The translations under genes were made by a program, and so were the position numbers. Below are positions 1,334-63,200 of a stretch of 64,000 nucleotides of DNA, in pieces. This DNA is from Mustelus asterias (taxonomy: Eukaryota). The notes beneath the pieces were generated by a model. That model made no database searches, had not been told where the DNA came from, and was given only the letters and a program-made list of their open reading frames with translations. The stretch is from positions 14,384,001-14,448,000 of the forward strand of contig NC_135830.1 of NCBI RefSeq assembly GCF_964213995.1, written 5' to 3'. How positions within the stretch are numbered: the first letter of the stretch is position 1; every line of letters starts with the position of its first letter.

Positions 1334-1494
1334 TCTTTAGGGTCCTGGGGAATTCGAATCAGCACTGGCTGCAGCGTCTCATCTACTTCATCGGCAACCT
1401 GCTGGGGTTGGCCCTGGCCATCTACAAGTGCCAGGCAATGGGGCTGCTGCCCACACATGCCTCTGACTGGCTGGCATTCATCCAGCCACCCCAG
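1334..1494 (+). CDS. EMC4: ER membrane protein complex subunit 4, penultimate coding exon
   Basis: Pyrimidine tract and cag| acceptor at 1333, |gtgag donor at 1495; encodes [53 protein letters not shown], recognisable as the EMC4/TMEM85 C-terminal motif [19 protein letters not shown]. Confidence 0.93.
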
Positions 1495-10199: not shown

Positions 10200-10700
10200 G
10201 GGTTCCAGTGCCTTGCGGAGACGGGAGCCCCGCCCCCACCCATTGTTCCCCTCCCCCTACACCTCCTCCAGCCAAGGTTTCCAGGCAACCGGCTGGCGGC
10301 TCCGGCCAGAGTGAGAAGCCGCTCGGTGATCTCCCCCTCCCCCCTCTCTCTCCGGCGGCTGCGGCTCCAAAAAGAGATCGAGAGCGACCGCTGGCGGCAG
10401 CCGCACTGCGCCTGCTCCGGACAGCTCGGCTCAGCAGCACTCTCTGCGCCTGCTCCGGACAGCTCGGCTCAGCAGCGCTCTCTGCGCCTGCTCCGGACAG
10501 CTCGGCTCAGCAGCGCTCTCTGCGCCTGCTCCGGACAGCTCGGCTCAGCAGCGCTCTCTGCGCCTGCTCCGGACAGCTCGGCTCAGCAGCGCTCTCTGCG
10601 CCTGCGCGCTGGTCTGCCAGCTGAGGGAGTGGGGGAGGGGACTTTGCAAAATCTCTTCCCATCATTTTCTTCCAAGTCCCGCAGTTTGATTTGAAACAGA
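10200..10700. promoter_or_regulatory. CpG-island bidirectional promoter between divergent ZNF genes
   Basis: CpG-rich; NRF1-like TGCGCCTGC repeats; donor-like sites on both strands (- at ~10240, + at ~11014). Confidence 0.7.
10406..10610. repeat. 38-bp tandem repeat, 5 copies plus a partial
   Basis: ctgcgcctgctccggacagctcggctcagcagcgctct starting at 10406, 10444, 10482, 10520, 10558, 10596. Confidence 0.95.
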
Positions 10701-10717
10701 ACAGCTTCTGTTTGTAG

Positions 10718-10993
10718 CTTCACCACAGACTCAAACTTCACCACAGACTCAAACTTCACACACAGACTCAAACTTCACACACAGACTCAAACTTCACCAC
10801 AGACTCAAACTTCACCACAGACTCAAACTTCACCTCAGACTCAAACTTCACCTCAGACTCAAACTTCACCACAGACTCAAACTTCACCACAGACTCAAAC
10901 TTCACCACAGACTCAAACTTCACCACAGACTCAAACTTCACACACAGACTCAAACTTCACACACAGACTCAAACTTCACACACAGACTCAAAC
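10718..10993. repeat. 18/19-bp minisatellite, about 14 copies
   Basis: cagactcaaacttcacca / cagactcaaacttcacaca units. Confidence 0.95.
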
Positions 10994-11854
10994 CTCCTCC
11001 TCTGGACAACATCTGTGAGGAAAACACTTTCTTTCTCCCCCTGGGAAATGCAGAGACAGAGAAATTCTCTGGAACTGGAATTAGAGCCAAATATACTGAG
11101 GGGGAAATGTTTGTGATTTTGTGGAACCTGTTTTTATTGTCTGAGCTTTTTAAAGTGTAATTTATCTTGTCTATTCAAATACTGTTTATCTCTTTGCATG
11201 ATTTAGTGATGCTGGTTTTAGATTGATTTGTAAAGTATTTTTTTCAATGTGTAATCTTGTCCTTCAGTATTCCATTAGAACTTTCTGGAAATTTGTTTAC
11301 CTTTTAGATTAGTAACAACAGAGATATATCTTGTGTTCAAATATTTGGTATATTTATGTTTCGGTAATAAGATTCATTGTTTTATTCTTGTAATATAGCA
11401 TGTAGTTACGTTATATAGTTCCAGTCAAAGAGACATTACAATTCAGAAAGATTGCTTTTAAAATCTGGAGTAAATATAGTTTTCTCAAATCCCTTTCCCA
11501 TCATCTCTCTAATTAAGAAATGCGGCACTGTATACCACATGTTTTTAGTCCAGTTATATTCAGAATTATCTGTTCTGAATTTCTGTCCAGCACTGACGGT
11601 GATGATTTTTGTCAACTTCTTTTACAGGATAATGGAGGGAAGGATTTACAGATTGGAATCTCAAAGGAAACGTCAAGTGAAGAATTAACAGAATTGTCCG
11701 ATTATTGGGACCAGAATATTATCGGCATTTGAGTCCAGGAGAAATGTTTCTCTCTTCTATCTGCTTCAAAAGATTTTAAACATTGGTGTAACACATACAC
11801 ACACACCAACCGCAACTAGTCAGCAAACCTGAGAGATACAAGGACACTGGCACC

Positions 11855-36200: not shown

Positions 36201-39110
36201 AACCTCACGCGATCACTCAGGCCCATTAGTCCCGGCAACATCCTCATAAATCTTCTTTGCACGCTTTCCAGTTTATCAATGTCTTTCCTATAACAGGGTT
36301 ACAAAAACTGTCCACAATACTCCAAGTGCAGCCTCGCCAACGACTCATACAACTATAACATAATGTCCCAACTCCTATACTCAGTGCCCTGACTGATGAA
36401 GGCCAGTGTGCTAAATGCCTTCTTCACCACTCTGTCTACCTGTGACATTACGTTCAACAAACTATGTACTTCTCCGAGGTTCCTCTGTTCCTCAACACTC
36501 CCCAGAGCCTTACCATTCATTGTATAAGTCCTACCCTGGTTTGACTTTCCAAAATGCAACACTCACACTTAAGACCATAAGACATAGGAGCAGAATTAGG
36601 CCACTTGTCCCGTCAAGTCTGCTCCGCCATTCAATTATGGCTGATATTTTTCTCATCCTCATTCTCCTGCCTTTTTCCCATGACCCCTGATCCCCTTATT
36701 AATCAAGAACCTATCTATCTCTGTCTTAAAGACAGTCAATGACCTGGCCTCCACAGCCTTCTGCGGCAAAGAGTTCCACAAATTCACCACTCTTTGGCTG
36801 AAGAAATTCCTCCTTATCTCTGTTTTAAAGGATCGTCCCTTTAGCCTGAGGTTGTGCCTCTGTACTCTGTATTATCTGTACTGAAATCCATTTTCCAATC
36901 AGCGGCCACTTCTCTAACCGATCAACTGATCAAGATCCCCCTGTAATTTTTGATAATCTTCTTCACTATCAGCGATACCTCCTAATTTAGTATCGTTTGC
37001 AAACTTGCTAACCATGCTTTTTATGAATTTTTAAACGGCCATCCATTTCTCTGTTTCACCTCTGCCCTCCCTGATCAGCTCTCTGCCATTGTCTACCTTC
37101 CTCTCCTCTTATAATGGGTGTATTTTAACTATTATTTCTGCAAGCTATGTCTTGATGAGGTTTTTACCACTTCACAACTCTATTCACTGCTGATTTACCA
37201 GCTTAGTCTCACAATGTTCAGGAATTGTTTCTCTTCCACTGGAGATCATTTCCCTTCCACTTCTGAGCTTATATTGACCAATAAAATCTGATACATTTTT
37301 ATTCCCTGTAATTCATTCTGCCCACCCTGAAACGTTAATCTTCTTTCTGTCTAAAAGGATGGTCTCTTTTCAAATGTTCACAATTAAAGGGCAGGAGATG
37401 GCTGACATTTAAGGGGACAGTACGTTAATATAGGACAGAGATATGTCTGGTGTTATTATATGGTACCCAGATGAGATATATTATTGATGTTTCTGCAATA
37501 AAATATATTTATTATTATTTCTTGCATTGTAATATAATGCTGTCGCGATGTTATACACTTCCAGTCATAAAGTCATTACAGCACAGAAGGAATCCATTTG
37601 GTAACTCGAGTCCATGCTGACTCTCTGTATAACATTCCAGTCCCATTCCCACTCTATATCCCCCTTCTCCTGAAAGTTTATTTCCTTCAAGCGCCCATTC
37701 ACTTTCATTTTTAAAATGAATCCATAGATATGGTTGGAGATTTATAACATTTTGGGAATGAAATAGAAAAGAATGTTCCATAGAAACTAGAATTGTCTGC
37801 TCTGAATTTCTATCCGATACTGACTGTGATGACTTTTGCAAACTCATTTCACAGGATTTTGAATGAGGAATCACAGGCAAAAATCTCAACCGTCACATCT
37901 CGAAAGAGTCATATTCCTTGGGATCTGAATATCTTGTAATATGGAACTGTAGCTACGTTATATATTTCCAGACATCTCTTCCCTCAGAGGGTTGTTAGTC
38001 TTTTGGATTTCTCTTTCACAGGGATCAGTGGAGGCTGAGGATCATTGAATATATTCCAGTTAGACAGATCTTTGACTGACAAGGGTGTCAAGGGTTATGG
38101 GGAACAGACAAGAAGATGGAGCAAAAGCTAATATGTGGGGGGATTTCTTCACTCAAGGATGTGGTAAAGCTTTGGAATTCTCAACCCCTGAGGACAGTGA
38201 AACCTCAGTCATCAACTATTTTCAAGAGAGAGATTGATTGGTTTCTAGTTTTGAAGATATCCAGGGATATGGGTTTAGTGTGGGGAGAATGATGCTGAGG
38301 TAGATGAACAAATTATCTCATTGAATAGTTTAAAAGAATCGATGAGCCAAATGGCCGACTGCAGCTCCTATTTGTTATGGTCTCTGTGTCCAGGACAGGA
38401 AGCAGTGAGCATGGATCTGTCAATCAGCCTCAATCTGCACCTTCAGGAGAATTGGGAGGGTGAATATTAGATACAGCAGAGTGAGAATGGAGGGAGAATG
38501 TGTGGGATGGAGATTTACAGCTTTTTGGGACTGAAATAGGAAAGAATGTTCCATAGAAACTAGAATTGTCTGCTCTGAATTTCTATCCTGTCCTGACACT
38601 GATGACTTTTGTAAACTTGTTTTACAAGATATTGAAAGAGGAATCACAGGCCGAAATCTCAAACGTCACGTCTAGACGTGACAGAGTCATATTCCATGGG
38701 AGCTGAATGTCATCTAACTTTGAATCTAGAAGGAGAAATGATTGTCCGGTCTGTTGATTTGAAAAGATTTCGAACATCAGTGTGACTGGAAAAGCACCAA
38801 CACACTGCCACACTCGAGTGAGAGTCTTCCAGTGCACTGACTAAAGAGCTTTAACCAGTTACACAGCCTGAATAAATATCACACCATTCACAGCAGGGAG
38901 AGACTGTACCCGTGTTCTGTGTGTGGACGAGGCTTCAACTGATTGTCCACCCAAGACAGAGGCAAGGACACCTGCACCATGGAGAAACCATGGAAATGTG
39001 GGGACTGTGGCAAGATATACAGAGCTCCATCTCTGCTGGAAGCTCATCGGCGCAGCCACACTGGGGAGAGACCATTCACCTGCTCTCAGTGTGGGGAGGG
39101 ATTCACTCAC
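33227..39110. repeat. Right arm of inverted segmental duplication
   Basis: Reverse complement of 19930-25893 with scattered substitutions and an arm-specific SINE at 34251-34590. Confidence 0.92.
34251..34955. mobile_element. Two HE1-like SINEs: + 34251-34590 (arm-specific) and - 34660-34955
   Basis: Heads, cores and tails as above. Confidence 0.85.
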
Positions 39111-39485
39111 TCATCCAACATGAAGAGACACCAGCGAGTTCACACTGGGGAGAGACCGTTCACCTGCTCTCAGTGTGGGAAGGGATTCGCTTGTTCATCC
39201 ACCCTGCGGAAACACCAACGAGTTCACACTGGAGAGAGGCCATTCACCTGCTCTCGATGTGGAGAGGGATTCACTCAGTCATCCCACCTGCAGAGACACC
39301 AGCGATTTCACACTGGGGAGAGGCCATTCACCTGCTCTCAGTGTGGGAAGGGATTCTGTGATTCATCCAGCCTGCTGACACACCAGCGAATTCACATTGG
39401 GGAGAGGCCGTTCACGTGCTCTGTGTGTGAGAAGAGATTCAGTCTTTTATCCCAGCTGCTGAGACACCAACGAGTTCACGAGTGA
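38979..39485 (+). CDS. C2H2 zinc-finger protein, 6 fingers
   Basis: ATG 38979 [12 protein letters not shown]...HQRVHE*; donor |gtgagt at ~33688. Confidence 0.88.
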
Positions 39486-44920: not shown

Positions 44921-46110
44921 AAAATTTATCTTCATTGCACATTCGTTACATACACAGCAATTAAGATTTTACATTTTAACAGCAAATAAAAACTCAGTCT
45001 TTTACTATAACGACTGATTCATTAATTGTAACTCAATTGAGGATCACTGCTTATTCAATCACCATGATGCCCCTCCGTGGCCACAGGTATCCTTAATGGT
45101 AGGCATGAACCCAGAATGTTTGAGTGATTCAGGTAGATGACTGAAAATTCAGTAAAGAAACTCTCATGTCTGTTTGAGCTACATTGCTGGAAGTAAGCTT
45201 ACCAGCGCTGCTCCAATTACGTTTGCATAATGAATATGGAGTTTAGGGAATGCAGTTGATGAAAAGATCAATAATTGTCTTCGAATCCATACAGTGCAAA
45301 AGGAGGCCATCAGGCTCTTCGAGTCTGCAGTGACTCTCCGACAGGGTATATTTTCCTGGTCCTCTTCCCTGCTCCATCACCGTAACCCCACAGATTTTTC
45401 GTGGCGATTTATTCTAACCCACAAATTTCTGACAAGTTGGCATGCTGAACGCATCTAACCTGCACATCATTGAACTGTCGGAGGAAAAGGGGCACCCCAC
45501 ACAGACACTGGGAGCATCTGCAAACTCCACGTAGCCTGGAACTGAACCCGGATTCCTGGAATTATGAGGCAGCAGTGCTAACCACTGTGACACCACTGTA
45601 CCAATTAATGACAGCCAAGCACGCACGATGGGGTGAATGGTCCATCGCAAGATCTGCAAATGTTCTGAATTTACAGAATTTCTTTGGTGGTTTACACACT
45701 TCGCTGTGCGGAAGTGAGCAGTGAGGATAAGGTGGTGCTGCTCCATTGGATGACTGTCAATGAAACGCAAAATACAGCCATGGTCTGCTCCGCTACTTTT
45801 GCCTTCACTGACTTTGCCCGGGTGCAGACAGCAACGGAATGAATCGTTTCAGTAATTGCTGATGGCGAGTTGTGGGGCTGATCAACAAGGAAGGATCACT
45901 GCTTAAATCTGGTGAACATTATCCATTTCCAAACAATCCAAGAGCGGAGAACACATGTGATCTTAAGTTTGTGTCGTTAACTTTAGCTGTCTCTTATTTA
46001 CACTGCCATTCACATGGTCTCTGGTAATGACGGTTTCATTAAATGAGACAAATAGAAAGGGCACATTGATTGTCAGGTAGCAATGTGAAAACTCCGCAAT
46101 GACGGTAAAT

Positions 46111-46128
46111 CACGCCACCTGCTGGTGG
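46111..46128 (-). promoter_or_regulatory. CTCF-like motif CCACCAGCAGGTGGCGTG
   Basis: Matches the CTCF core CCASYAGRKGGCR; ~400 bp upstream of the pseudo-V ATG. Confidence 0.6.
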
Positions 46129-46522
46129 TTCCGGGTAGCTTTGTTTGTCGAGTTTGTCAAAATCAGTTGTCACCCCTTGAATTATTTGAATTAATTTCCA
46201 GTCATTTGATAGCGATAAGGAGGTTTACAAAAAATGAGAGGTTGGTATAACAAAGAGACGGAAGCAATGAGACAGAGTTATGATGAAAGTCACATGAGAC
46301 ACAGAAGGAACCAGAAAATGCGATTCTTTACAGCTCTCATTTATTGGCGGGGAATATCCATCAGTTCCGGCAGAGTAGCCAATCCTGTCTCTTGGAAATG
46401 CCCCTCAGTTTCTCAAAAAATAAACCCAGATTATAACAGGGGCTACCCTTTACACTGGATTGGAATTATCGGCAGAATTAGAGCATTTTGTTACTTTGCA
46501 TCGAGATGTATACAGGGAAACC

Positions 46523-46951
46523 ATGTGTTCTCCATGCTCCTTACTGATTATAATGATCTTGCTGCCCGGCGGGTCCATTATTAAATGGTAACCATGTCAT
46601 CCAGTGGTTATTTTTAAACCCTGACTTTTGAGCTAATCTGTATTTACGTGACATGAATGAGTGGCAAAACTTCAGTGTTCCAGGCTCATTTCGAATTAAC
46701 AATTCGGGAAGGACAGTGTGGACTGGACTGCAGTTACTTGATAACCTGCACTACCCCAACTCTACTCTGGTACATGCAGTATTCCGGGGAAGCTCCAAGA
46801 TATTTCCTGAAGAAATATAGCTTAGGGGGTTACGAAAGGTCCCCAAACGGAGGTTTTCTGCAGATTTGCAGAAGGGAAATGAAACAGTTCCTTTATATCT
46901 CGCGGGGGCTCTTCTGTCGGATACTGCCGTGTATTTCCGTGCGATGGAGCA
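46523..46951 (+). pseudogene. T-cell receptor alpha/delta-type V pseudogene
   Basis: 46-nt leader MCSPCSLLIIMILLP-G (46523-46568) with GC donor; acceptor mutated (cat| at 46654); V exon SVFQ...LDCSY...LLWYMQYSGEAPRY, frameshift, RFSADLQKGNETVPLYLAGALLSDTAVYFRAM (second conserved Cys changed to Arg). Confidence 0.85.
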
Positions 46952-46990
46952 CACACTGATACAGAGATAGAGCGGATCCAGTCCGAAACC
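46952..46990 (+). other. Degenerate 23-RSS
   Basis: CACACTG (46952-46958), 23-bp spacer, TCCGAAACC (6/9 match to ACAAAAACC). Confidence 0.75.
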
Positions 46991-47014
46991 CCCCAGAATG
47001 GGGGTTCCAGTTGG

Positions 47015-47033
47015 TGGCCAGAAGATGGCGCTG
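47015..47033 (+). promoter_or_regulatory. CTCF-like motif TGGCCAGAAGATGGCGCTG
   Basis: Consensus-like; 24 bp downstream of the RSS nonamer. Confidence 0.6.
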
Positions 47034-48145
47034 TCACACCGATCAATCGGGACAAGAATTAAACCCAGTGAGAGTCACAGAAAAGAACAAAACATAACCC
47101 CCCATGAGAAGAGGTGAGGGACACTTGCGGAATTGTATCAGTTGATTTTAACGCGCGTTCATAATAAAACTCGCCTTTGGAAATCTATTTGATCTATTTC
47201 GTTCACTTAGTGTTTTGAAGCTGTTTCCATGCCTCTCTGTAACATTAAACAACTCTTGTTCATCTCCCCTTTTAGATTTCTGGAGCCTTTGGCCCGAGAC
47301 CAGTTCTCTGGTTTTATTTGATCAGAGTGTGTTGTTGGGTCAGAAACAGTTTATGAAAAATGAACAGATTTCAGAACTCATTGGCTTTGATCATTCAATT
47401 GAATTTCACAATCTTTCCCGAACAGTATTCGAATACTCATCTGATTTACAGAAACGAGGAGCAGCGAGAAACAGATGAACAATGCGGATATGATAAGAAG
47501 TTTAATGCTACCCTGGTATTCGGTGGAGACAGTCAGGGAGATGTGGAAACTGGCTGCTCTGAACTTCGGATTTATTTGAGAAATCAAAGTCGCAACTTTA
47601 TGAAATGTGTTCAGGGTGTGCAAGCTTTCTGGAATGTAGCAATAGTGATCAAATAAACGCTATGAACAGCTCACCCTCAAAGGCCCCCAGAAACTGAAAA
47701 GGGAGACGGAGCGAGTGGTGTTCAATATGGTAAGCAGGCATGGAAAAGGAAGGAAAGGACAAATAGGGACTTCGGGATCAGAGGACGTCACACAAACATG
47801 GAGAACTGTCCGTCTGCTGTGTGTGTGGCGCTTCACGGCCAGGTTTGACGGATGTTTGGGATTTTATCACCCAGGTCTGATTTTAGAGGAATACAGAGTT
47901 GATTAGTAGCAGAAGGGACGATTTAATTGACACATTCATTATGTGATGGACTTGTCGGCCTAAAACGGTTCTGCAGTTTGTTTCCTCGGCCTCTCCTGGA
48001 AACAGTTGGGTGACAGTTGATCCGAGGTGAATATGGTTTCCTGTCGGTTTGTGTTTGAGCGGCTGACAGCGCCGCTGCTCATTGTGGCTGCATCTGCCAG
48101 AGGTTCTATACAGCAGCGAGGAGCTCTGACTTATCTTGCTGAGAC

Positions 48146-48184
48146 AGTTTTTGTACAGGAGTCAGACTGCTTTCCATCACTGTG
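48146..48184 (-). other. Intact 23-RSS
   Basis: Reverse strand CACAGTG (48184-48178), exactly 23-bp spacer, ACAAAAACT (48154-48146). Confidence 0.95.
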
Positions 48185-48643
48185 AGGCTGAAAGCGCAGT
48201 AATACACGGCCGCGTCAGACAACTGCAGACCCGAGATAGTCAAACTGATGGATTTCTTCGAGGTTTGGAGGTCAGTCGAGAAACGGATTTTAGCAAAATC
48301 TGCTTTATCTTCATTACCCCCCGAGTACTTCCACAGTATGTACTCGGGCTGGGAGTCTGGATGCTGTCGGTACCAGTATAAACTATAGTAGGTTTCTGCA
48401 GTATCATAGTTGCAGTTTAATGTCACCGCGTCTCCTTCTGTCTTAACATCTGAGGACAGCGACTGAGTGACAGAATCGCCATGGATCAGACCTGGAAAAT
48501 ATGTTCAGATAGATAAAGAATAGAGTGACGAGTACTCAACAGTAAGATTCAACCCAAGTTTTGGAAATGAGAAAACAAACGTGATGTCCAGATATACCTG
48601 TTAGAAATGCCCCCCACACAATCCAGATGCCGAGTACCCGCAT
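48185..48643 (-). CDS. T-cell receptor alpha/delta V gene segment, apparently functional (leader 48643-48598, intron 48597-48492, V exon 48491-48185)
   Basis: Leader MRVLGIWIVWGAFLT-G|gtatat, tttccag|GLIHGDSVTQSLSSDVKTEGDAVTLNCNY...LYWYRQ...RFSTDLQTSKKSISLTISGLQLSDAAVYYCAFS; both Cys and Trp conserved; 23-RSS follows. Confidence 0.93.
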
Positions 48644-50217
48644 TGTCTCTGTCCGCTCTGTAAAGGAGGAATCGGATATTTGAAGACACCCATTCTAATC
48701 CCCACCCTTAATAATCTGATGACGAGTCTCAGAATGCTCACGCGTCAGTTCCGTGTCTCGCCAGTGGCTCCGTGAGATTGGTAATTGCTCAGATGACTGT
48801 TAGTGAATGGAAGTTCTCCAACTTGTCCTTCATTCGGTGTCCCTGTTGGGCGAATTGTTCCGCTTTGGAAACGGGATGTCAAGAAAAAAAAACTTCATTT
48901 TGTTATTGGAACGGAGGAGCAAGGAGTGTTGATTGATTTGGTGGATTTCCAATCAATGTTCTGTGCACATTTTCTTAGCTTTCGCATCCGAGCATTAGTG
49001 CCTGAGACTCCAGTGAGAGTCCAGAGAACGGTGGAGGCTGAGGGCCATAGAATAATTTTAAAGCTGAGTGAAACCAACATTTTAACTAAAATTTATGCCA
49101 CGGTTCAAGAAGATCAAGGCAGCAAAGTGGATTTAAACAGAAGATCAGATGAACTGTAATCTGACTGAATGGTAGAGCAGATTTGCAGGCAGCCTAATTT
49201 TTGTGTTCGAATGTTCAGATATCAGCGGATGGGCTGTGAGATACTTTGCAATCTTCGTTGTTTTACTAAAGGAACAGGGAAGTCGATCAGTGAGCTCTCG
49301 TTGCCTGTTTATTGTTCCTGAGATAATGTAAAAAGTGTACTGTGGATGTTGTACTGAAACTTGACCGTGCCTGAAATCAGCAGGATTCGGATATCAAATG
49401 GTTATAGTGCAGCTAATTATGACATTGCCTTTTCTTCAAAGGTCCACTCAGGGACAACAAGATGCACTTGGTAGTTGTGGCCCCATCTCATATAATATAC
49501 TGGGAAGTGTCAACTTCAAGAACTTCCGCTTTTTTAACTTAATCATTGTCAACATGGGGTCACTGGAAAAGTAATTCACGGACCCAGAATGATGCTCTGG
49601 GAAAAGTAGATCAATCCCATCATATCAACTGGTTACATTTAAATTCGATTTACGAGAAAAGTAGTCAAAATTCTACCCCAGCAGCTGGTTAAATTTAAAT
49701 GTGATTAATTGATATTGAAAGCTACTCGCAATGATCGTTCCGAACGCGATCACTGCAAATCCACCTGGTTCACGAATGCACTTTGTGGAAGGAAATCTGC
49801 CTTCCTAGCCTGGCCTGGTCTGTGTGTGACTACAGAACAACTGTAGTCACATAACTAACTCTCAAATAGCCCAGCCCGTTTCGAGGACAATTAGTGATGG
49901 ACAAAATCTTGGACTTGTGACCGACACCCAATCAATATTTTTCTTTAAAAAGAGTAGTCATCATTTGATTAATAGTTATACCTAAATTACAGCAGTCAGG
50001 AGAACAGCATATTCTTTACTTTTAATTGGGAAGGAAACGCTAAGTGAAAAAGTGATATATTGACGAGCAGAGGTCCTTCTCCCGAATCAGTAACGTTGCA
50101 GCTCAGGAAATATTCTCCTGGAGTGGAAACACAGATTCACGCCCCCACAACGCTCATAGATCCACCCGCATTTCTGATACAACCAGTGCCAAACAAGTAA
50201 ATCAACAGAAATCTCTT

Positions 50218-50505
50218 CATAGAATCCCTACAGTGCCGAAGGAGGAGCCCATTAAGCTTGCACCGACAACATTCACACCAAGGCCCTATCCCCGTAACCC
50301 CACGTGTTAATCTCCTAATCCCCCTAACACTAAGGGACATGACTATTCCACCTAACCTGCACATTTTTGGACTGTGGGAGGAAACGCACGCAGAGACGGG
50401 GAGAAGGTGAAAACCCCACACAGACAGCTACCCAAGGCCGGAATTGAACCTGGGCCCCCTTTGCTATGAGGCAGGAGTGCCAGCCATTGTGCCACCGTGT
50501 CGCCC
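50218..50505 (-). mobile_element. HE1-like SINE
   Basis: Degenerate full copy. Confidence 0.8.
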
Positions 50506-50637
50506 ATTGACTAATAAAGGATACATGAGGTGAGAGCAGAAAAATGGGACTGCGTGGTTACTGCCAATAGCAGCGATATGCGAATGGTGCCAGAGGTTTT
50601 GTCGCCATCATTTCAAGTTGGGAGAAATATGTGACGA

Positions 50638-50760
50638 CTGCGCCCTCTGGCGGTGACTCAGGTTACGTGACGCTGTCCGCAAGTGCAAGGTTGACGATGG
50701 GCCGTCTCCAGCGGGCTTTTACTGAGAGACGTGTTTTCAAACAATGCAACTATATAAATA
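50638..50760. promoter_or_regulatory. CTCF-like motif (- strand TCACCGCCAGAGGGCGCAG) with adjacent AP-1/CRE-like and TATA-like motifs
   Basis: CTCF-like 50638-50656, TGACTCA 50654-50660, TTACGTGACG ~50663, TATATAAA 50751. Confidence 0.55.
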
Positions 50761-50987
50761 GACGTGAGTGAAATATGAGTAACTTGAAAGAACAATGCAT
50801 TCAGGGTCATTTCTGAATCTCTTCCTTTCTCTCTTTCTCACAGCTTTTGACTTTGTATTTCGCACTCGTAATGTCTCACTTTCCTTCAATTCTCCTTTCA
50901 TACTTTTCTGATTTGTTGTCCTCTGCCCGTAATCTTAAACCGAAAACCAATTCCAGGATTTTGACGCAAGGGAGCGGCGTTACGTAG

Positions 50988-51207
50988 AGCACAGTGGTTA
51001 GCACCGCTGCTTCACAGCTCCAGGGACCTGGGTTCGATTCCCAGCTCGGGTCACTGTCTGTGTGGAGTTTGCACATTCTCCTCGTGTCTGCGTGGGTTTC
51101 CTCCGGGTGCTCCGGTTTCCTCCCACAGTCCAAAGATCTGCGGGTTAGGTTGATTGGCCATGCTAAAAATTGCCCCTTAGTGTCCTGAGATACGTAGGTT
51201 AGAGGGA
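50988..51207 (+). mobile_element. 3'-truncated HE1-like SINE abutting CR1 ORF1
   Basis: Head and core end at gttagagggatt and run directly into CR1 sequence. Confidence 0.85.
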
Positions 51208-54200
51208 TTGGTGACAAGTGTGAGAGGGGAGGGGAGTGAAAAGTTAGAAGAGGGGTCACCTGTGGTTGTCCCACTCCAAAACAGGTATATTGTTTTAGAT
51301 AGTGTGGAGGAGTGTGCCTCTCCAGGGGTAAGACACAGTGACCAGGTCACTGGCACACAGTCAGGCTCTGTGGCCCGGAAAGGGAAGAGAGGGGTTAGGA
51401 GAGCGATAGTGGTGGGGGATGCATCAGTTAGAGGCACAGACAGGCGATTCTGTGGGGGCGAACGGGACTCCAGGATGGTAGTCTGCCTACCTGGTGCTGG
51501 GGTCACGGATGTCTCCGAGCGGATAGGAGGCATATTAAAAGGGGAAGATAAAGAAACGGATGTCATTATACACATTGGTGGAAATGACGTAGATAGGAAG
51601 AGTAGGGGGGTCCTAAGAGAGCAATTCAGGGAGTTGGGAAATAGGTTAAAAAGTAGGGTCACTAGGGTGGCCATCTCTGGGCTGCTCCCAATGCCTCGTG
51701 CCAGTGAGGCTAAGAATAGGGAGTTGATACAAACGAATGCCTGGCTAAAGGACTGGTCCAGGAGGGAGGGCTTCATTTTCATAGATCAATGGGAGGTTTT
51801 CAGGAGAGGATGGCACCTGTACAAGAGGGAGGGTTCACAACTAAGTTGGAAGGGCACAAATATCCTGGCTGGGAGCTTTGCTAGTGCAGTTCGGGGGGGG
51901 TTTAAACTAGTATGGCAGGGGGGTGGGGATCAAACTATTAGGTCTATAAGTGTGGTGGCTGGGGACGAGCTTGGGGCTGGGACAAGGATGGCAAAGAAGA
52001 AGAGCACTCTGGGGGAGGACGACCTCACTGAGCCTGGAGATCTGGAGTGCTTATACTTCAATGCAAGGAGCGTAGCAGGTAAGACAGACGAACTTGGGGC
52101 CTTAATGCGCACGAGGAATTTGGATGTGGCTGCGGTGACAGAGACTTGGTTGAAAGAGGGACAGGACTGGCAGCTGAATATTCCAGGGTACAAGTGTTTT
52201 TTGGCGAGACAGAGGAGGGGCCAAAAGAGGTGGGGGAGTAGCAGTATTAGTTGGAGAGCATATTACAGCGGTGCAGAGGGAGGACAATTCAGAGGAGTCA
52301 TGTAACGAGTCACTCTGGGTGGAGCTTAGAAACAGGAAAGGCGCAGTCACTATGTTGGGGGTGTACTACAGGCCCCCCAACAGCCCAAGGGAAGTGGAAG
52401 AATGGATATGTCAGGAGATACTGGATAGGTGCAGGAAATATAGGGTTGTTGTAGTGGGAGACTTCAATTTCCCTGGTATAGACTGGAAATCGCTGAGGGC
52501 AGGGACTCTGGATGGGGAGGAATTTGTAAAATGTGTACAGGAGGGTTCGTTGGAACAATATGTAGACAGCCCGACTAGAGAGGGGGCTATACTGGACCTG
52601 GTACTGGGGAATGAGCCCGGTCAGGTCTTCAAAGTTTTGGTTGGGGAACATGTGGCAAATAGTGACCACAATTCTGTTAGCTTTAGGATAGTGATGGAAA
52701 AGGATGAGTGGTGTCCCAAGGGTAAGGTGTTGGATTGGGGAAAGGCTAACTTTATTGGGATCAGGCAGAAATTGGCAGCTCTTGATTGGGAGAGGCTGTT
52801 TGAGGGTAAATCCACATCTGGTATGTGGCAGTCTTTTAAGGAACGGTTGTTAGGGCTACAGGACAAGCATGTGCCTGTAAAAAAGAAGGATAGGAAGGGT
52901 AGGATTAGAGAACCGTGGATAACCAGGGAAATTGAGGGACTGGTCAAAAGGAAAAGAGAGGCGTATGTTAGGTCCAAGCAGCTAAAAACGGAGGGAGCTC
53001 TGGAGGAGTATAATGAAAGTAGGAAAATACTCAAACGGGGAATTAGAAGAGCAAAAAGGGGTCACGAAATGTTCTTGGCAGACAGGATTAAGGAGAATCC
53101 CAAGGCATTTTATTCATACGTTAGGAACAAAAGGGTTGTTAGGGAAAAAATCGGACCTCTCAGGGACAAAAGTGGGGACTTATGTTTGGAGCCCAAAGAG
53201 GTAGGGGAGATCCTAAATGAATACTTTGCGTCGGTATTCACTAAGGAGAGGGATGTGTTGACTGGGAGTGTCTCGGAGGGGAGTGTTGAACCGTTGGAGA
53301 AAATCTCCATTACAAAGGAGGAAGTGTTAGGTTTGTTAGAGAATATAAAGACTGACAAATCCCCAGGGCCTGATGGAATCTATCCAAGGCTGCTCAGGGA
53401 GACGAGAGGTGAAATCGTTGGGCCTCTGACGCAAATCTTTGTCTCGTCACTGGACGCAGGTGAGGTCCCAGAGGATTGGAGGATAGCCAATGTGGTCCCG
53501 TTATTTAAGAAGGGTAGGAAGGATAACCCGGGTAATTATAGGCCGGTGAGCTTGACGTCCGTGGTGGGGAAGTTGTTGGAGAAGATTCTTAGAGATAGGA
53601 TGTATGCGCATTTAGAAAGGAATAAACTCATTAACGATAGTCAGCATGGTTTTGTGAGAGGGAGGTCATGCCTCACTAACCTGGTGGTGTTTTTTGAAGA
53701 AGTGACCAAAATGGTTGACGAAGGAAGGGCCGTGGATGTTGTCTATATGGACTTTAGTAAAGCGTTTGACAAAGTCCCTCATGGTAGGCTATTAAAAAAG
53801 GTTGGATCCCATGGGATAAAGGGGGAGGTGGCTAGATGGGTGGAGAACTGGCTTGGTCATAGAAGACAGAGGGTGGTAGTGGAAGGGTCTTTTTCCGGCT
53901 GGAGGCCTGTGACTAGTGGTGTACCGCAGGGCTCTGTATTGGGACCTCTGCTGTTTGTGATTTATATAAATGATCTGGAAGAAGGAGTAACTGGGGTGAT
54001 CAGTAAGTTTGCGGGCGACACAAAACTGGCAGGACTTGCAGATAGTGAGGAACATTGTCAGAGGCTACAGAAGGATATAGATAGGCTGGAAATTTGGGCA
54101 AGGAAATGGCAGATGGAGTTCAATCCTGATAAATGCGAAGTGATGCATTTTGGTGGGAATAATGTAGGGAGGAGCTACACGATAAATGGAAGAACCATAA

Positions 54201-55373
54201 AGGGTGTAGAGACGCAGAGGGACCTGGGTGTGCAAGTCCACAGATCTTTGAAGGTGACGTCACAGGTGGAGAAGGTGGTGAAGAAGGCATATGGCATGCT
54301 TGCCTTTATAGGACGGGGCATAGAGTATAAAAGTTGGGGTCTGATGTTGCAGATGTATAGAACGTTGGTTCGGCCGCATTTGGAATACTGCGTCCAGTTC
54401 TGGTCGCCACACTACCAGAAGGACGTGGAGGCTTTGGAGAGAGTACAGAGGAGGTTTACCAGGATGTTGCCTGGTATGGAGGGGCTTGGTTATGAGGAGA
54501 GATTGGGGAAACTGGGGTTGTTCTCCTTGGAAAGACGGAGGATGAGGGGAGACTTAATAGAGGTGTATAAAATTATGAAAGGCATAGATAGGGTGAACGG
54601 TGGGAAGCTTTTCCCCGGGTCGGTGGTGACGTTCACGAGGGGTCATAGGTTCAAGGTGAAGGGGGGGAGGTTTAACACAGATATCAGAAGGACATATTTC
54701 ACACAGAGGGTCGTGGGGGCCTGGAATGTGTTGCCGGGCAAGGTGGTGGAGGCGGACACACTGGGAACGTTTAAGACTTATCTAGACAGCCATATGAACG
54801 GAGTGGGAATGGAGGGATACAAAAGAGTGGTCTAGTTTGGACCAGGGAGCGGCGCGGGCTAATTGTTCCTGGTTTCTCGTTTCAAGGCTTCATTCTATGA
54901 TCATCTTGCTGGTGCCAGTACAGAGTGAGACTGCGGATAGTTGGGAACCTGTCTCGGGGGCAGGGAATTCATATGGTGTTCGTGGAAGTGGAAATGACTA
55001 GGGTTGGGAAGCATTTTCCGATCGGGGCCAATGTGATCTCCTGGACTCGTTTCGATCGCCTCGGGGGGTCGGAGAGGAATTTCCCAGATTTTTTTTCCCC
55101 ATATTGGCCCTGGGGTTTTTCACTCTGGGTTTTCGCCTCTCCCTGGAGATCACATGGTCTGGAATGGGGGGGTGGGGGTAAGTTAATAGGTTGTAATGAA
55201 CAAAGCATCGGAGCTGTGAGGGACAGCTCGGTGGATAGGATATTGGTATGTAGATAGGCTGGAAAATTGGGCGGGGATCCTGGATTCAGGATTCAATCCT
55301 GGACCGGGGAGCGGCGCGGGCTTGGAGGGCCGAAGGGCCTGTTCCTGTGCTGTATTGTTCTTTGTTCTTTGTT
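51208..55373 (+). mobile_element. Near-full-length CR1 LINE: ORF1 (SGNH/esterase-like) and ORF2 (APE endonuclease + RT)
   Basis: ORF1 IVVGDASVRG...CLPGA...HIGGNDV; ORF2 [40 protein letters not shown]; 854-aa open frame 52271-54835; one-base frameshift in T-run at 52197-52202; (GTTCTTT)n tail. Confidence 0.95.
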
Positions 55374-55374
55374 T

Positions 55375-55840
55375 GTAAGTGCATCCCAGGACATTGTGGG
55401 AAGCGAGGGAAACAATTGTGGTGCCCCCTAGCGTATATATTTGTATCATCAACAACCACGGGTGAGGTGCCAGAAGACTGGAGAGAGGCAAATGTTACAC
55501 TGTTATTTGAGAAAGGCAGCAGGGAAAAGCCAGGGAACTACAGACTGGTGATCCTAATGTCAGGGTGGGTAAGTTGTTGGACGGTAGTCTGAGAGACAGG
55601 ATCTACATGTATTTGGAAAGGCAAAGGCTGATTACGGATTGTCAGCATCGCTTTGTGCGTGGGAAATTGTGTCTTAAAAATTTAACAGAGCTTTTTGAAA
55701 GGGTGACCAAAAAAAAATAGATGAGGACGGTGCAGTAGATGTTGTCTACATGGACTTCAGCAAGGCCTTCGACAAGGTACCTATGGTAGACTGGCCAGTT
55801 AAGGTTAGACCACATGGGATCCATGGAGAACTAGCCAGAC
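55375..55840 (+). mobile_element. Older CR1 RT fragment
   Basis: EVPEDWREANV...PGNYR, YMDFSKAFDKV. Confidence 0.8.
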
Positions 55841-61378: not shown

Positions 61379-62086
61379 TTACTTATGAATTCGCTGGTGT
61401 GTCAGCAGAGTGGACGACTGACTGAATCCCTTCCCACACACACAGCAGATGAATGGCTTCTCTCCAGTGTGAATTCGTTGGTGTCTCAGCAGATTGGCTG
61501 AGTGAGTAAATCCCTTCCCACACTGGGAACAGACGAATGGCCTCTCCCCAGTGTGAACTCGCTGGTGTTTTGCTAGGTTGGATGACTCCTTGAATTTCTT
61601 CCCACACACAGAGCAGGTGAATGGTCTGGCCTCAGTGTGAATTCGCCGGTGTTTTGCTAGGTTGGCTGACTGACTGAATCTCTTCCCACACTGGGAGCAA
61701 GTGAACGGCCTCTCCCCAGTGTGAACTCGCTTGTGTAATGCTAGGTTGAATGACTGATTGAATCCCTTCCCGCACACACAGCAGCTGAATGGTCTCTCCT
61801 TAGTGTGAATCCTTTGGTGTATACGCAAGCTGGATGACTGAATGAATCCCCTCCCGCATCGGGAGCAGGTGAATGGCCTCTCCCCAGTGTGACGGCGTCG
61901 ATGAGTTTCCAGCTGCGATGGGTATTTGAATCCCTTCCCACAGTCCTCACATTGCCATGCCATCTCCTTGTTGTGACTGTAATTATGTTCCGAAAGGCTG
62001 GATGATTGGTTGAAGTCTTGTCCACACACACAACACGTGTACAGTTTCTCTCCACTGTGGATGGCGCTGTTTTCTTCTAGATTCAA
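61379..62086 (-). CDS. C2H2 zinc-finger protein, 8 fingers (paralog of the 7781 gene)
   Basis: 235-aa open frame, first ATG 61963; upstream 62100-64000 collinear with 8760-9860. Confidence 0.88.
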
Positions 62087-63200
62087 AACACAATGATATT
62101 CAGGTTACAATAACTTGGCCGACTCCATCAGGTTCTGATACCACGTTTGGTTTGCGTTTCCCCACTGCAAATCCTCCTCTTCTAAATCAAACTGATTTAA
62201 AACAGCAAAAAGGGAGTGAGAGAGAACCCACAAAAACACAAAGGCAAGTTGTGAAATTGAGCTGAATGAATCTGGTATTTTGTGGGACCGGAGTGAGGAA
62301 AAGGTAAACATAAAAGCTGCTGAATTGTCATAAAAACCCAACTGAGTCACTAAGGTCCTTCAGGGAAGGGTATGTGCCACCTGGTCTGGGTCTACACAAG
62401 AATCTGGGCACTGTGTGAGGTGACAGAGAGAAGTGAGAGAGGCAGTGGCGAAGAAGAGGGATTTCAAACATCTATAACTCGACGGGAACTTTGACAGAAT
62501 CTCCCAAACTCTCAATCTCCATCACCTATAAGGACCAAGGTAGCAGGTAGATGTGAACACCATCACCTCCAAGTTCGCTTTTAACTCACACACCACCCTG
62601 ACTTGTCTGACATCCAGTACTAAAAGAACAGAAAATTCTTCCATATAAATACTGGGAAGACTGAACCCATTGAGTTCAGTTCCCACTACAAATTCCACTC
62701 TCTCACCACCAAATCTACCCCTCTTCCTAGCAACTGTCTTGGGGTGAAATATTTCACCCCAAGATGAGCTTCCAGCCACATATCATCATCATCAAGACTG
62801 CCTATTTGTGACATGAAACTCAGGAGAATGAGGATATAGAGGGAGAATGGAACTGACTGAATTGCTCTGCAGAGAGTTGCCATGGATTTGAGTTGCCAAA
62901 TGGATTCCTTCTATGCTGTAATTTTGCATGACTGTAACACTACATACTCTACCTCTCCTTTCCTTTTCTATGTACAGTATGCTTTGCCTGTATAGCACGC
63001 AAAAAACAATACTTTTCATTATACACTAATCCAAGAATAGAATCCCTACAGTGCAGAAGGAGGCCATTCGGCCACCGAGTCTGTACCAACCACAATCCCA
63101 CCCAGGCCCTATTCCCACAACCCCACACATTTACCCTGCTAATCCCCCGACACTATGGTCAATTTATTATGGTCAATCAACCTAACCCACACATCTTTGG

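Follow-up and report, generated by a model that had tools for sequence, protein, structure and literature searches.

An intact T-cell receptor alpha/delta V gene within duplicated zinc-finger blocks of Mustelus asterias, megabases from its candidate joining partners

How does a T-cell receptor (TCR) V gene come to lie among C2H2 zinc-finger (ZNF) genes, and could it be rearranged from such a place? The question is raised by 64,000 nucleotides of scaffold C71 of the shark Mustelus asterias (G000:C71:14384001-14448000, the whole stretch analysed, hereafter the window; positions given without a scaffold name count from its first letter), in which one intact V gene and one V pseudogene (pseudo-V) sit between ZNF genes. 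We suggest, with a probability of about 0.7, that alpha/delta V genes were spread by block duplication and that the intact V likely rearranges by RAG-mediated inversion over 2 to 4 Mb.

The intact V gene is read from the minus strand. Its 46-nt leader exon (48643-48598), of a length common to 30/30 nearest loci, is followed by a 106-nt phase-1 GT-AG intron (48597-48492) and by an open V exon (48491-48185) that keeps both Cys and the Trp and matches the Pfam V-set domain with an E-value of 1.7e-16. The exon ends at a 23-spacer recombination signal sequence (RSS; 48184-48146, minus strand) of the form CACAGTG-23-ACAAAAACT, the sole 23-spacer RSS returned by the RSS scan of the window. A preliminary description of this stretch had drawn leader, 106-bp intron, V exon and 23-RSS as we find them and had called the RSS perfect; because its nonamer has one mismatch relative to the consensus, the RSS is near-perfect, not perfect.

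Rearranged alpha and delta chains of sharks have V parts that are 65-70% identical to this V exon. Its nearest longer relatives are a whale shark model (P0002, 70%), in which the C part is delta-type and has human TCR delta chains as its best PDB matches, and a record (P0003, 65%) in which the V is joined to J-Calpha and the C part is alpha-type. A further sequence, P0017 (68% to the V), is likewise joined to a delta-type C. Full-length P0002 matched only V exons in the genome, and the C parts were therefore searched separately; those of P0002 and P0003 were each best matched by the corresponding C exon of the M. asterias genome. A PDB search with the V itself returned mostly multi-domain antibody constructs and no classification of the V. 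In nurse shark, five of seven delta V families also serve alpha (PMC5931798). Since its relatives are joined to both C types and such V sharing occurs in nurse shark, the intact gene is best read as a shared alpha/delta V segment.

Where, then, are the segments with which such a V could join? As the preliminary description had stated for the window, no D, J or C was found there or in the scanned flanks (C71 14.374-14.488 Mb, 114 kb). It had proposed mapping the scaffold for these genes, and C71 proved to carry all three kinds. On the plus strand, a Jalpha array of 35 J segments with 12-RSSs (18.371-18.418 Mb) is accompanied by a complete Calpha with immunoglobulin (Ig), hinge and transmembrane (TM) exons; the block spans 18.37-18.43 Mb and lies 3.9 Mb from the V, the TM exon standing at 18.432 Mb behind an 11.6-kb satellite. 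Three D-J-Cdelta cassettes, also on the plus strand, occupy 7.12-7.14, 11.02-11.05 and 12.25-12.27 Mb, the nearest D being 2.2 Mb from the V. Ig heavy-chain (IgH)-type C exons are linked to these genes as well: a search for C1-set exons placed 19 of its best 150 matches on C71, and the two exons that were translated look IgM-like. The D, J and C found on C71 are all in plus orientation, whereas the intact V is read from the minus strand. The 120 gap-free kb that precede the Jalpha array contain only ZNF genes and no Cdelta.

The hinge-TM intron of the C71 Calpha (18.420-18.432 Mb) is itself an 11.6-kb satellite of about 720 unit copies, and its unit contains a splice-donor motif. A separate observation concerns C71 14.3767 Mb, 7 kb before the window, where a Ddelta-type 12-RSS with its 5' flank is followed by non-D sequence and a nonamer-like motif; the arrangement could reflect a signal joint that was retained, or a relic.

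The ZNF surroundings of the V are accounted for by duplication. The preliminary description had placed the V genes between ZNF genes at 39 and 61 kb, and open reading frames (ORFs) indeed lie at 38.9-39.5 and 61.4-62.1 kb: one of six fingers on the left (38943-39485, plus strand), with an about 100% twin on C87, and one of eight fingers on the right (61379-62104, minus strand), with twins of 99% identity on C119 and on C71 (6.43 Mb), all of these twins being without an adjoining V. The window holds seven ZNF ORFs, and the best 40 matches of the left one are all on C71 or on small contigs. Between the left and right ORFs, the core duplicated V block (45083-51209, unstranded) is 95-97% identical to paralogous blocks. 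When ten paralogous regions were each read over 20-30 kb, a ZNF gene lay within about 15 kb of the V in 10/10, and one and the same V+ZNF unit (V pair, further V, same ZNF) recurred in 7/10, over 16-29 kb at 94-99% identity; the left ZNF of the window was in register in 2/10 (88-90%). These shared flanks, which the preliminary description had named as a check, bear out its suggestion that TRA/TRD V genes are interleaved with ZNF genes and expand together. The V lies amid ZNF genes because the region has been copied and shuffled in blocks.

The window itself is a mosaic of a ZNF block, the V block, a long interspersed nuclear element (LINE) and another ZNF block. Its left part, -7.2 kb to about 44.5 kb, matches C87 at 99.3-99.7% identity; at about 44.5-44.6 kb the closest match switches from C87 (99.7%) to C447 (near 100%), and the C87 homology extends to about 45073, beyond which C87 has ZNF genes and no V. 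The junction between ZNF flank and V block near 45080 is old and real, since it is common to C106, C124, C88 and C447. On the right, the last position of the V block, 51209, falls within a short repeat and is followed directly by a young LINE (51210-55376, plus strand) whose GDSL-esterase ORF1 and endonuclease-reverse transcriptase ORF2 are both open. The LINE was absent from this edge in 8/8 V-side paralogues and the same junction was absent from 2/2 ZNF-side paralogues; a target-site duplication was looked for and none was found. Past the LINE, from 55377 onwards, the window matches C119 and C71 6.43 Mb at about 99% identity, two ZNF arrays that contain neither a V nor the LINE.

Three further observations concern C87. 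Its segment 1.177-1.230 Mb is a 52-kb near-identical twin of the left part of the window in which ZNF genes replace the V block, so that a presence/absence polymorphism of the intact V is possible. On C87, the pseudo-V is interrupted by a 3' piece from the family of the young LINE. Two short tandem repeat tracts at 10300-11100 of the window differ in length from those of the C87 twin.

The intact V itself is an ordinary member of a dispersed V field. A protein search with the V gave at least 150 paralogue matches (1990 candidates); among the matches listed, at least 17 V genes lie on C71 between 6.5 and 17.4 Mb (7 minus, 10 plus) and the others on about 60 small contigs. The frame is open and the RSS canonical or one-off in each of the 30 nearest loci. 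In 25 unique exons, the proportions of non-synonymous and synonymous change (pN/pS) were 0.134/0.109 in the 17 codons of the complementarity-determining regions (CDRs) and 0.025/0.045 in the 82 framework codons; the CDR codons had 32 non-synonymous and 5 synonymous changes, the framework codons 21 and 11. We infer that the intact V is functional, from a family that appears to be kept open and from amino-acid change concentrated in the CDRs. Nine single 10-kb samples along C71 contained one ZNF and three V matches, too few for an estimate of ZNF density.

The second V gene of the window, pseudo-V, faces the intact one. Its leader exon (46523-46568, plus strand, ATG at 46523) is 46 nt long, as had been described earlier, and has a GC donor instead of GT; the exon boundary is backed by a 69%-identical relative (L072) with a GT donor at the same place. 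The V exon (46655-46951, plus strand) has an AT acceptor, a frameshift and no second Cys, and is followed by a degenerate 23-RSS (46952-46990, plus strand). Pseudo-V is dead in the window and in 10/10 paralogous regions. The RSSs of the two genes are convergent and 1.2 kb apart, and this convergent pair is common to 24/29 nearest paralogues. A third, decayed V relic lies at 49214-49426 on the minus strand (tblastn, 35% over 71 amino acids, E-value 5.8e-12).

A scan for CTCF-like motifs, with a CTCF consensus and one mismatch allowed, predicted three in the whole window, every one inside the 6.1-kb V block (shuffle mean 0.03): one upstream of pseudo-V (46112-46125, minus strand), one 28 bp behind the pseudo-V RSS (47018-47031, plus strand) and one 2 kb upstream of the intact V (50640-50653, minus strand). 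Of such motifs, 45 were predicted in 466 kb of V-bearing DNA versus 0 in 348 kb of V-free DNA. In mouse Tcra/d, many CTCF sites lie upstream of V promoters in both orientations (PMC5859386). The third V relic, the three CTCF-like motifs and the young LINE had been absent from the preliminary description.

We propose the following course of events. Block duplication would have scattered V genes among copies of ZNF and EMC4 genes, and the mosaic would have arisen through LINE-associated joins and through unequal crossover where blocks are nearly identical. The 23-RSS of the V would pair with the 12-RSS of a Jalpha or a Ddelta. Joining to the C71 partners would proceed by inversion, because the minus-strand V and these partners, which are all plus-strand, have opposite orientations, and the V-linked CTCF-like motifs may help to bridge the ZNF spacers. 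The ZNF and EMC4 genes would most likely have been carried along without taking part in rearrangement.

Several points weigh against this proposal. The evidence for use of the V is germline sequence, with no rearranged read of this V, and P0002 is a model from annotation rather than a demonstrated transcript. The 3.9 Mb between the V and Jalpha were read in samples only, and about 60 small V-bearing contigs may belong in between, which would alter the distances. The 30 nearest loci were chosen by likeness to the intact V, which favours intact ones; the CDR limits were drawn by eye and the pairwise counts are non-independent. As for the CTCF-like motifs, the 45 matches are largely paralogous copies, and no match was found near the C71 Jalpha-Calpha block. 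The copy in the window may moreover be haplotype-specific or misjoined, because C87 lacks the V block and the LINE junction is unmatched in the paralogues.

If the V were not used in this way, what else could it be? The preliminary description had offered a dispersed orphon V as its second option. Such a gene would lie outside the TRA/TRD locus, as might seem from the scan of 114 kb around the V, which revealed no D, J or C, and from DAD1, the 3' flank of TRA/TRD in tetrapods (PMC2275272), which is not on C71 (none of eight DAD matches in the genome is there). J-Calpha and three D-J-Cdelta cassettes nevertheless share scaffold C71 with the V, as do the 19 C1-set matches, and for that reason we ruled out the orphon V, barring a scaffolding error in C71; a true orphon outside the locus is highly improbable. 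The V could instead be intact but idle, a passenger moved out of range by recent block duplication, with rearrangement internal to cassettes, as in shark IgH miniclusters, and with free V copies never used. An open frame need not mean use, because the copies are young (89-98% DNA identity); a dead neighbour was copied along in 10/10 regions; the partners are 2.2 and 3.9 Mb off and inversion would be needed; and the cassettes have V genes of their own. However, amino-acid changes pile up in the CDRs, and newt TRB uses inverted, distant V genes (PMC12698447). The C71 Jalpha array, too, must draw on distant V genes, since only ZNF genes lie in the 120 kb upstream of it. We consider an idle passenger unlikely.

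It is equally necessary to ask whether the assembly, through path switching and unpurged haplotypes among near-identical repeats, created the V block and a large share of the copies. The shift of the closest match from C87 to C447 at 44.5-44.6 kb, and to C119/C71 6.43 Mb (99%) after the LINE, would fit such an artefact, as would several Cdelta copies that are >99.3% alike, C850 being 99.95% identical to C71 12.27 Mb. On the other hand, the junction near 45080 is present on four other contigs, there is no N in the window or the fetched flanks, the three C71 Cdelta copies are about 2% apart with different V, D and J, and 19 Cdelta copies exceed two alleles of one locus. Contigs of four public DNA runs also cover 29-30/30 bins across 45.5-51.0 kb, although these are contigs of unstated kind from one study, possibly the source, and the joints were seen only as repeat-driven. 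An artefact of this extent seems to us decidedly unlikely. Dispersal of the alpha/delta V genes by block duplication, with rearrangement by long-range inversion, is thus the reading that we retain.

The interest sits in the unusual multi-cassette locus around the V, not in the V. The assembly contains 19 Cdelta Ig exons, all open, which fall into eight classes when linked at >=99.3% identity. Three are on C71 (7.14, 11.04 and 12.27 Mb; about 2% different from each other and each with its own V, D and J sets) and 16 on small contigs. D/J1 homology lies upstream of 18/19, none being found on C3311. Because 19 exons were found and two alleles are expected for each locus, there would be about ten Cdelta loci, or fewer if contigs are falsely duplicated. 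V-D-J-C cassettes were read on C71 (three), C850, C96 and C123; their contents vary among NAR-type V, supporting V, IgH-like V, D, J and C, and NCBI models labelled Mustelus asterias exist for such cassettes. A search for homologues of the Cdelta exon gave eight proteins, all with one species label. In six cassettes (C850, C401, C96, C119, C436 and C71 11.023 Mb), a V is fused to Ddelta before the D 23-RSS, with trimmed ends and four different junctions, one of which has two bases fitting P nucleotides. One junction is identical in C96, C119 and C436, which differ by 1.3-8%; being common to diverged contigs, it is germline and predates their duplication.

Jalpha-Calpha is likewise present twice, on C71 (35 J) and on C546 (135 J), with 84% identity at the C exon. 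The C546 locus lies at 138-242 kb, and the order along this contig is V genes, a ZNF array, two D relics whose 3' spacer is shortened, a 200-N gap, the J array and Calpha, so that a run of V, ZNF array, J and Calpha is contained in one 249-kb contig. A nested Cdelta could lie inside the gap. A classical nested TRA/TRD translocon has a single Cdelta, as opposed to the 19 exons found here, three of them on C71; repeated V-D-J-C units, as in the miniclusters of shark IgH and TRM, are present. We tentatively propose, as something a little short of an even chance, that the translocon has been broken into an Ig-like multi-cassette system of about ten V-D-J-Cdelta units (some of them RAG-joined in the germline) and two independent Jalpha-Calpha loci in a ZNF/EMC4 field of >11 Mb, with free CTCF-tagged V genes reaching them by multi-megabase inversion. 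This proposal is based on one assembly and on DNA only.

The preliminary description had placed its V island near EMC4. An EMC4 exon, from a diverged paralogue, is present at 1345-1488 (plus strand; exon region 1.3-1.5 kb), but it has no value as a landmark, because about 105 amplified exon copies exist. An EMC4 family search gave 137 exon matches, 106 of them to the first half of the profile (counted from the table), and of these 13 were on C71, one on C25 and the others on small contigs. The best-scoring copy (C71 20.31-20.34 Mb) has a 25-kb intron, and the window copy shares 94% and 81% amino-acid identity with it in two exons. EMC4 is a passenger of the V/ZNF duplications, not a synteny marker. 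A further copy of the family lies ahead of the window at C71 14381489, and many amplified copies, on C71 and on V-bearing contigs, have open frames. Our literature search found no paper on EMC4 amplification in sharks.

How does this locus compare with known systems? It is set in the elasmobranch antigen receptor complex (AgRC; Flajnik et al. 2025, PMC12227049), in which alpha/delta V genes spread over megabases in both orientations, with V exons between IgH clusters, and in which the field also contains NAR-TCR and IgH-like V genes, as on C71. V dispersal is already in print for sharks: Table S1 of that paper lists white shark TCR alpha/delta V models on chromosome 27 at 8.2-17.1 Mb on both strands, so the contrast with a dedicated mammalian V array drawn in the preliminary description loses its force. 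In that paper, however, TCR alpha/delta is called a translocon, and Table S1 gives one TRDC adjoining one TRAC in stingray and catshark, whereas M. asterias has 19 Cdelta exons and two J-Calpha loci and, unlike the tabulated loci, lacks a Cdelta in the 120 kb preceding the C71 Jalpha array. A word search gave no "zinc" for the text of PMC12227049 and, for its supplements, no "zinc finger" and no "EMC4". In nurse shark (Ott et al. 2018, PMC5931798), V families are also used with both Calpha and Cdelta; that locus is unassembled, unlike the one described here.

The newt resembles M. asterias in having two TRA loci, a TRD apart from TRA, a duplicated TRDC-J-V cluster and inverted V genes that are used (PMC12698447). 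The newt TRA and TRD occupy separate chromosomes and there are no more than two TRDC, whereas M. asterias has several TRD cassettes and TRA together on one scaffold, amid ZNF genes. Marsupial and monotreme TRM (PMC2275272, PMC7615758) is a TRD-derived double-V receptor with repeated clusters and C2H2 ZNF flanks and, in marsupials, a germline-joined V; this mammalian locus stands apart and has a C of its own, and ZNF genes flank it without interleaving. On zebrafish chromosome 4, the NLR immune family is interspersed with C2H2-only ZNF genes and local co-duplication has been proposed (10.1101/022061). Unlike shark V genes, NLR genes do not rearrange, and their spacing therefore costs nothing. 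In a literature search that was incomplete for the nurse shark locus, we found no paper on multiple Cdelta or ZNF interleaving in sharks, and no match for the 19 Cdelta exons in eight classes, the two diverged Jalpha-Calpha loci, the six-cassette V-D joins or the confinement of CTCF-like motifs to V-bearing DNA.

These results have several consequences for shark TCR genes. EMC4 and ZNF genes are unusable as synteny anchors in this region, which calls for caution. With V genes of either orientation separated from J by 2-4 Mb that include active-looking ZNF genes, the locus offers a natural test of RAG reach, to which the presence of CTCF-like motifs only beside V genes adds. Reviews describe shark TCR genes as translocons and only Ig genes as clustered (PMC6795676 and PMC12227049). 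If true, multiplied and partly pre-joined TCR delta cassettes together with two TCR alpha loci would blur the line between translocon and cluster, and about ten cassettes would raise the question of allelic exclusion. If the multi-cassette proposal holds, TCR genes would have shifted from a translocon to a cluster layout within living sharks.

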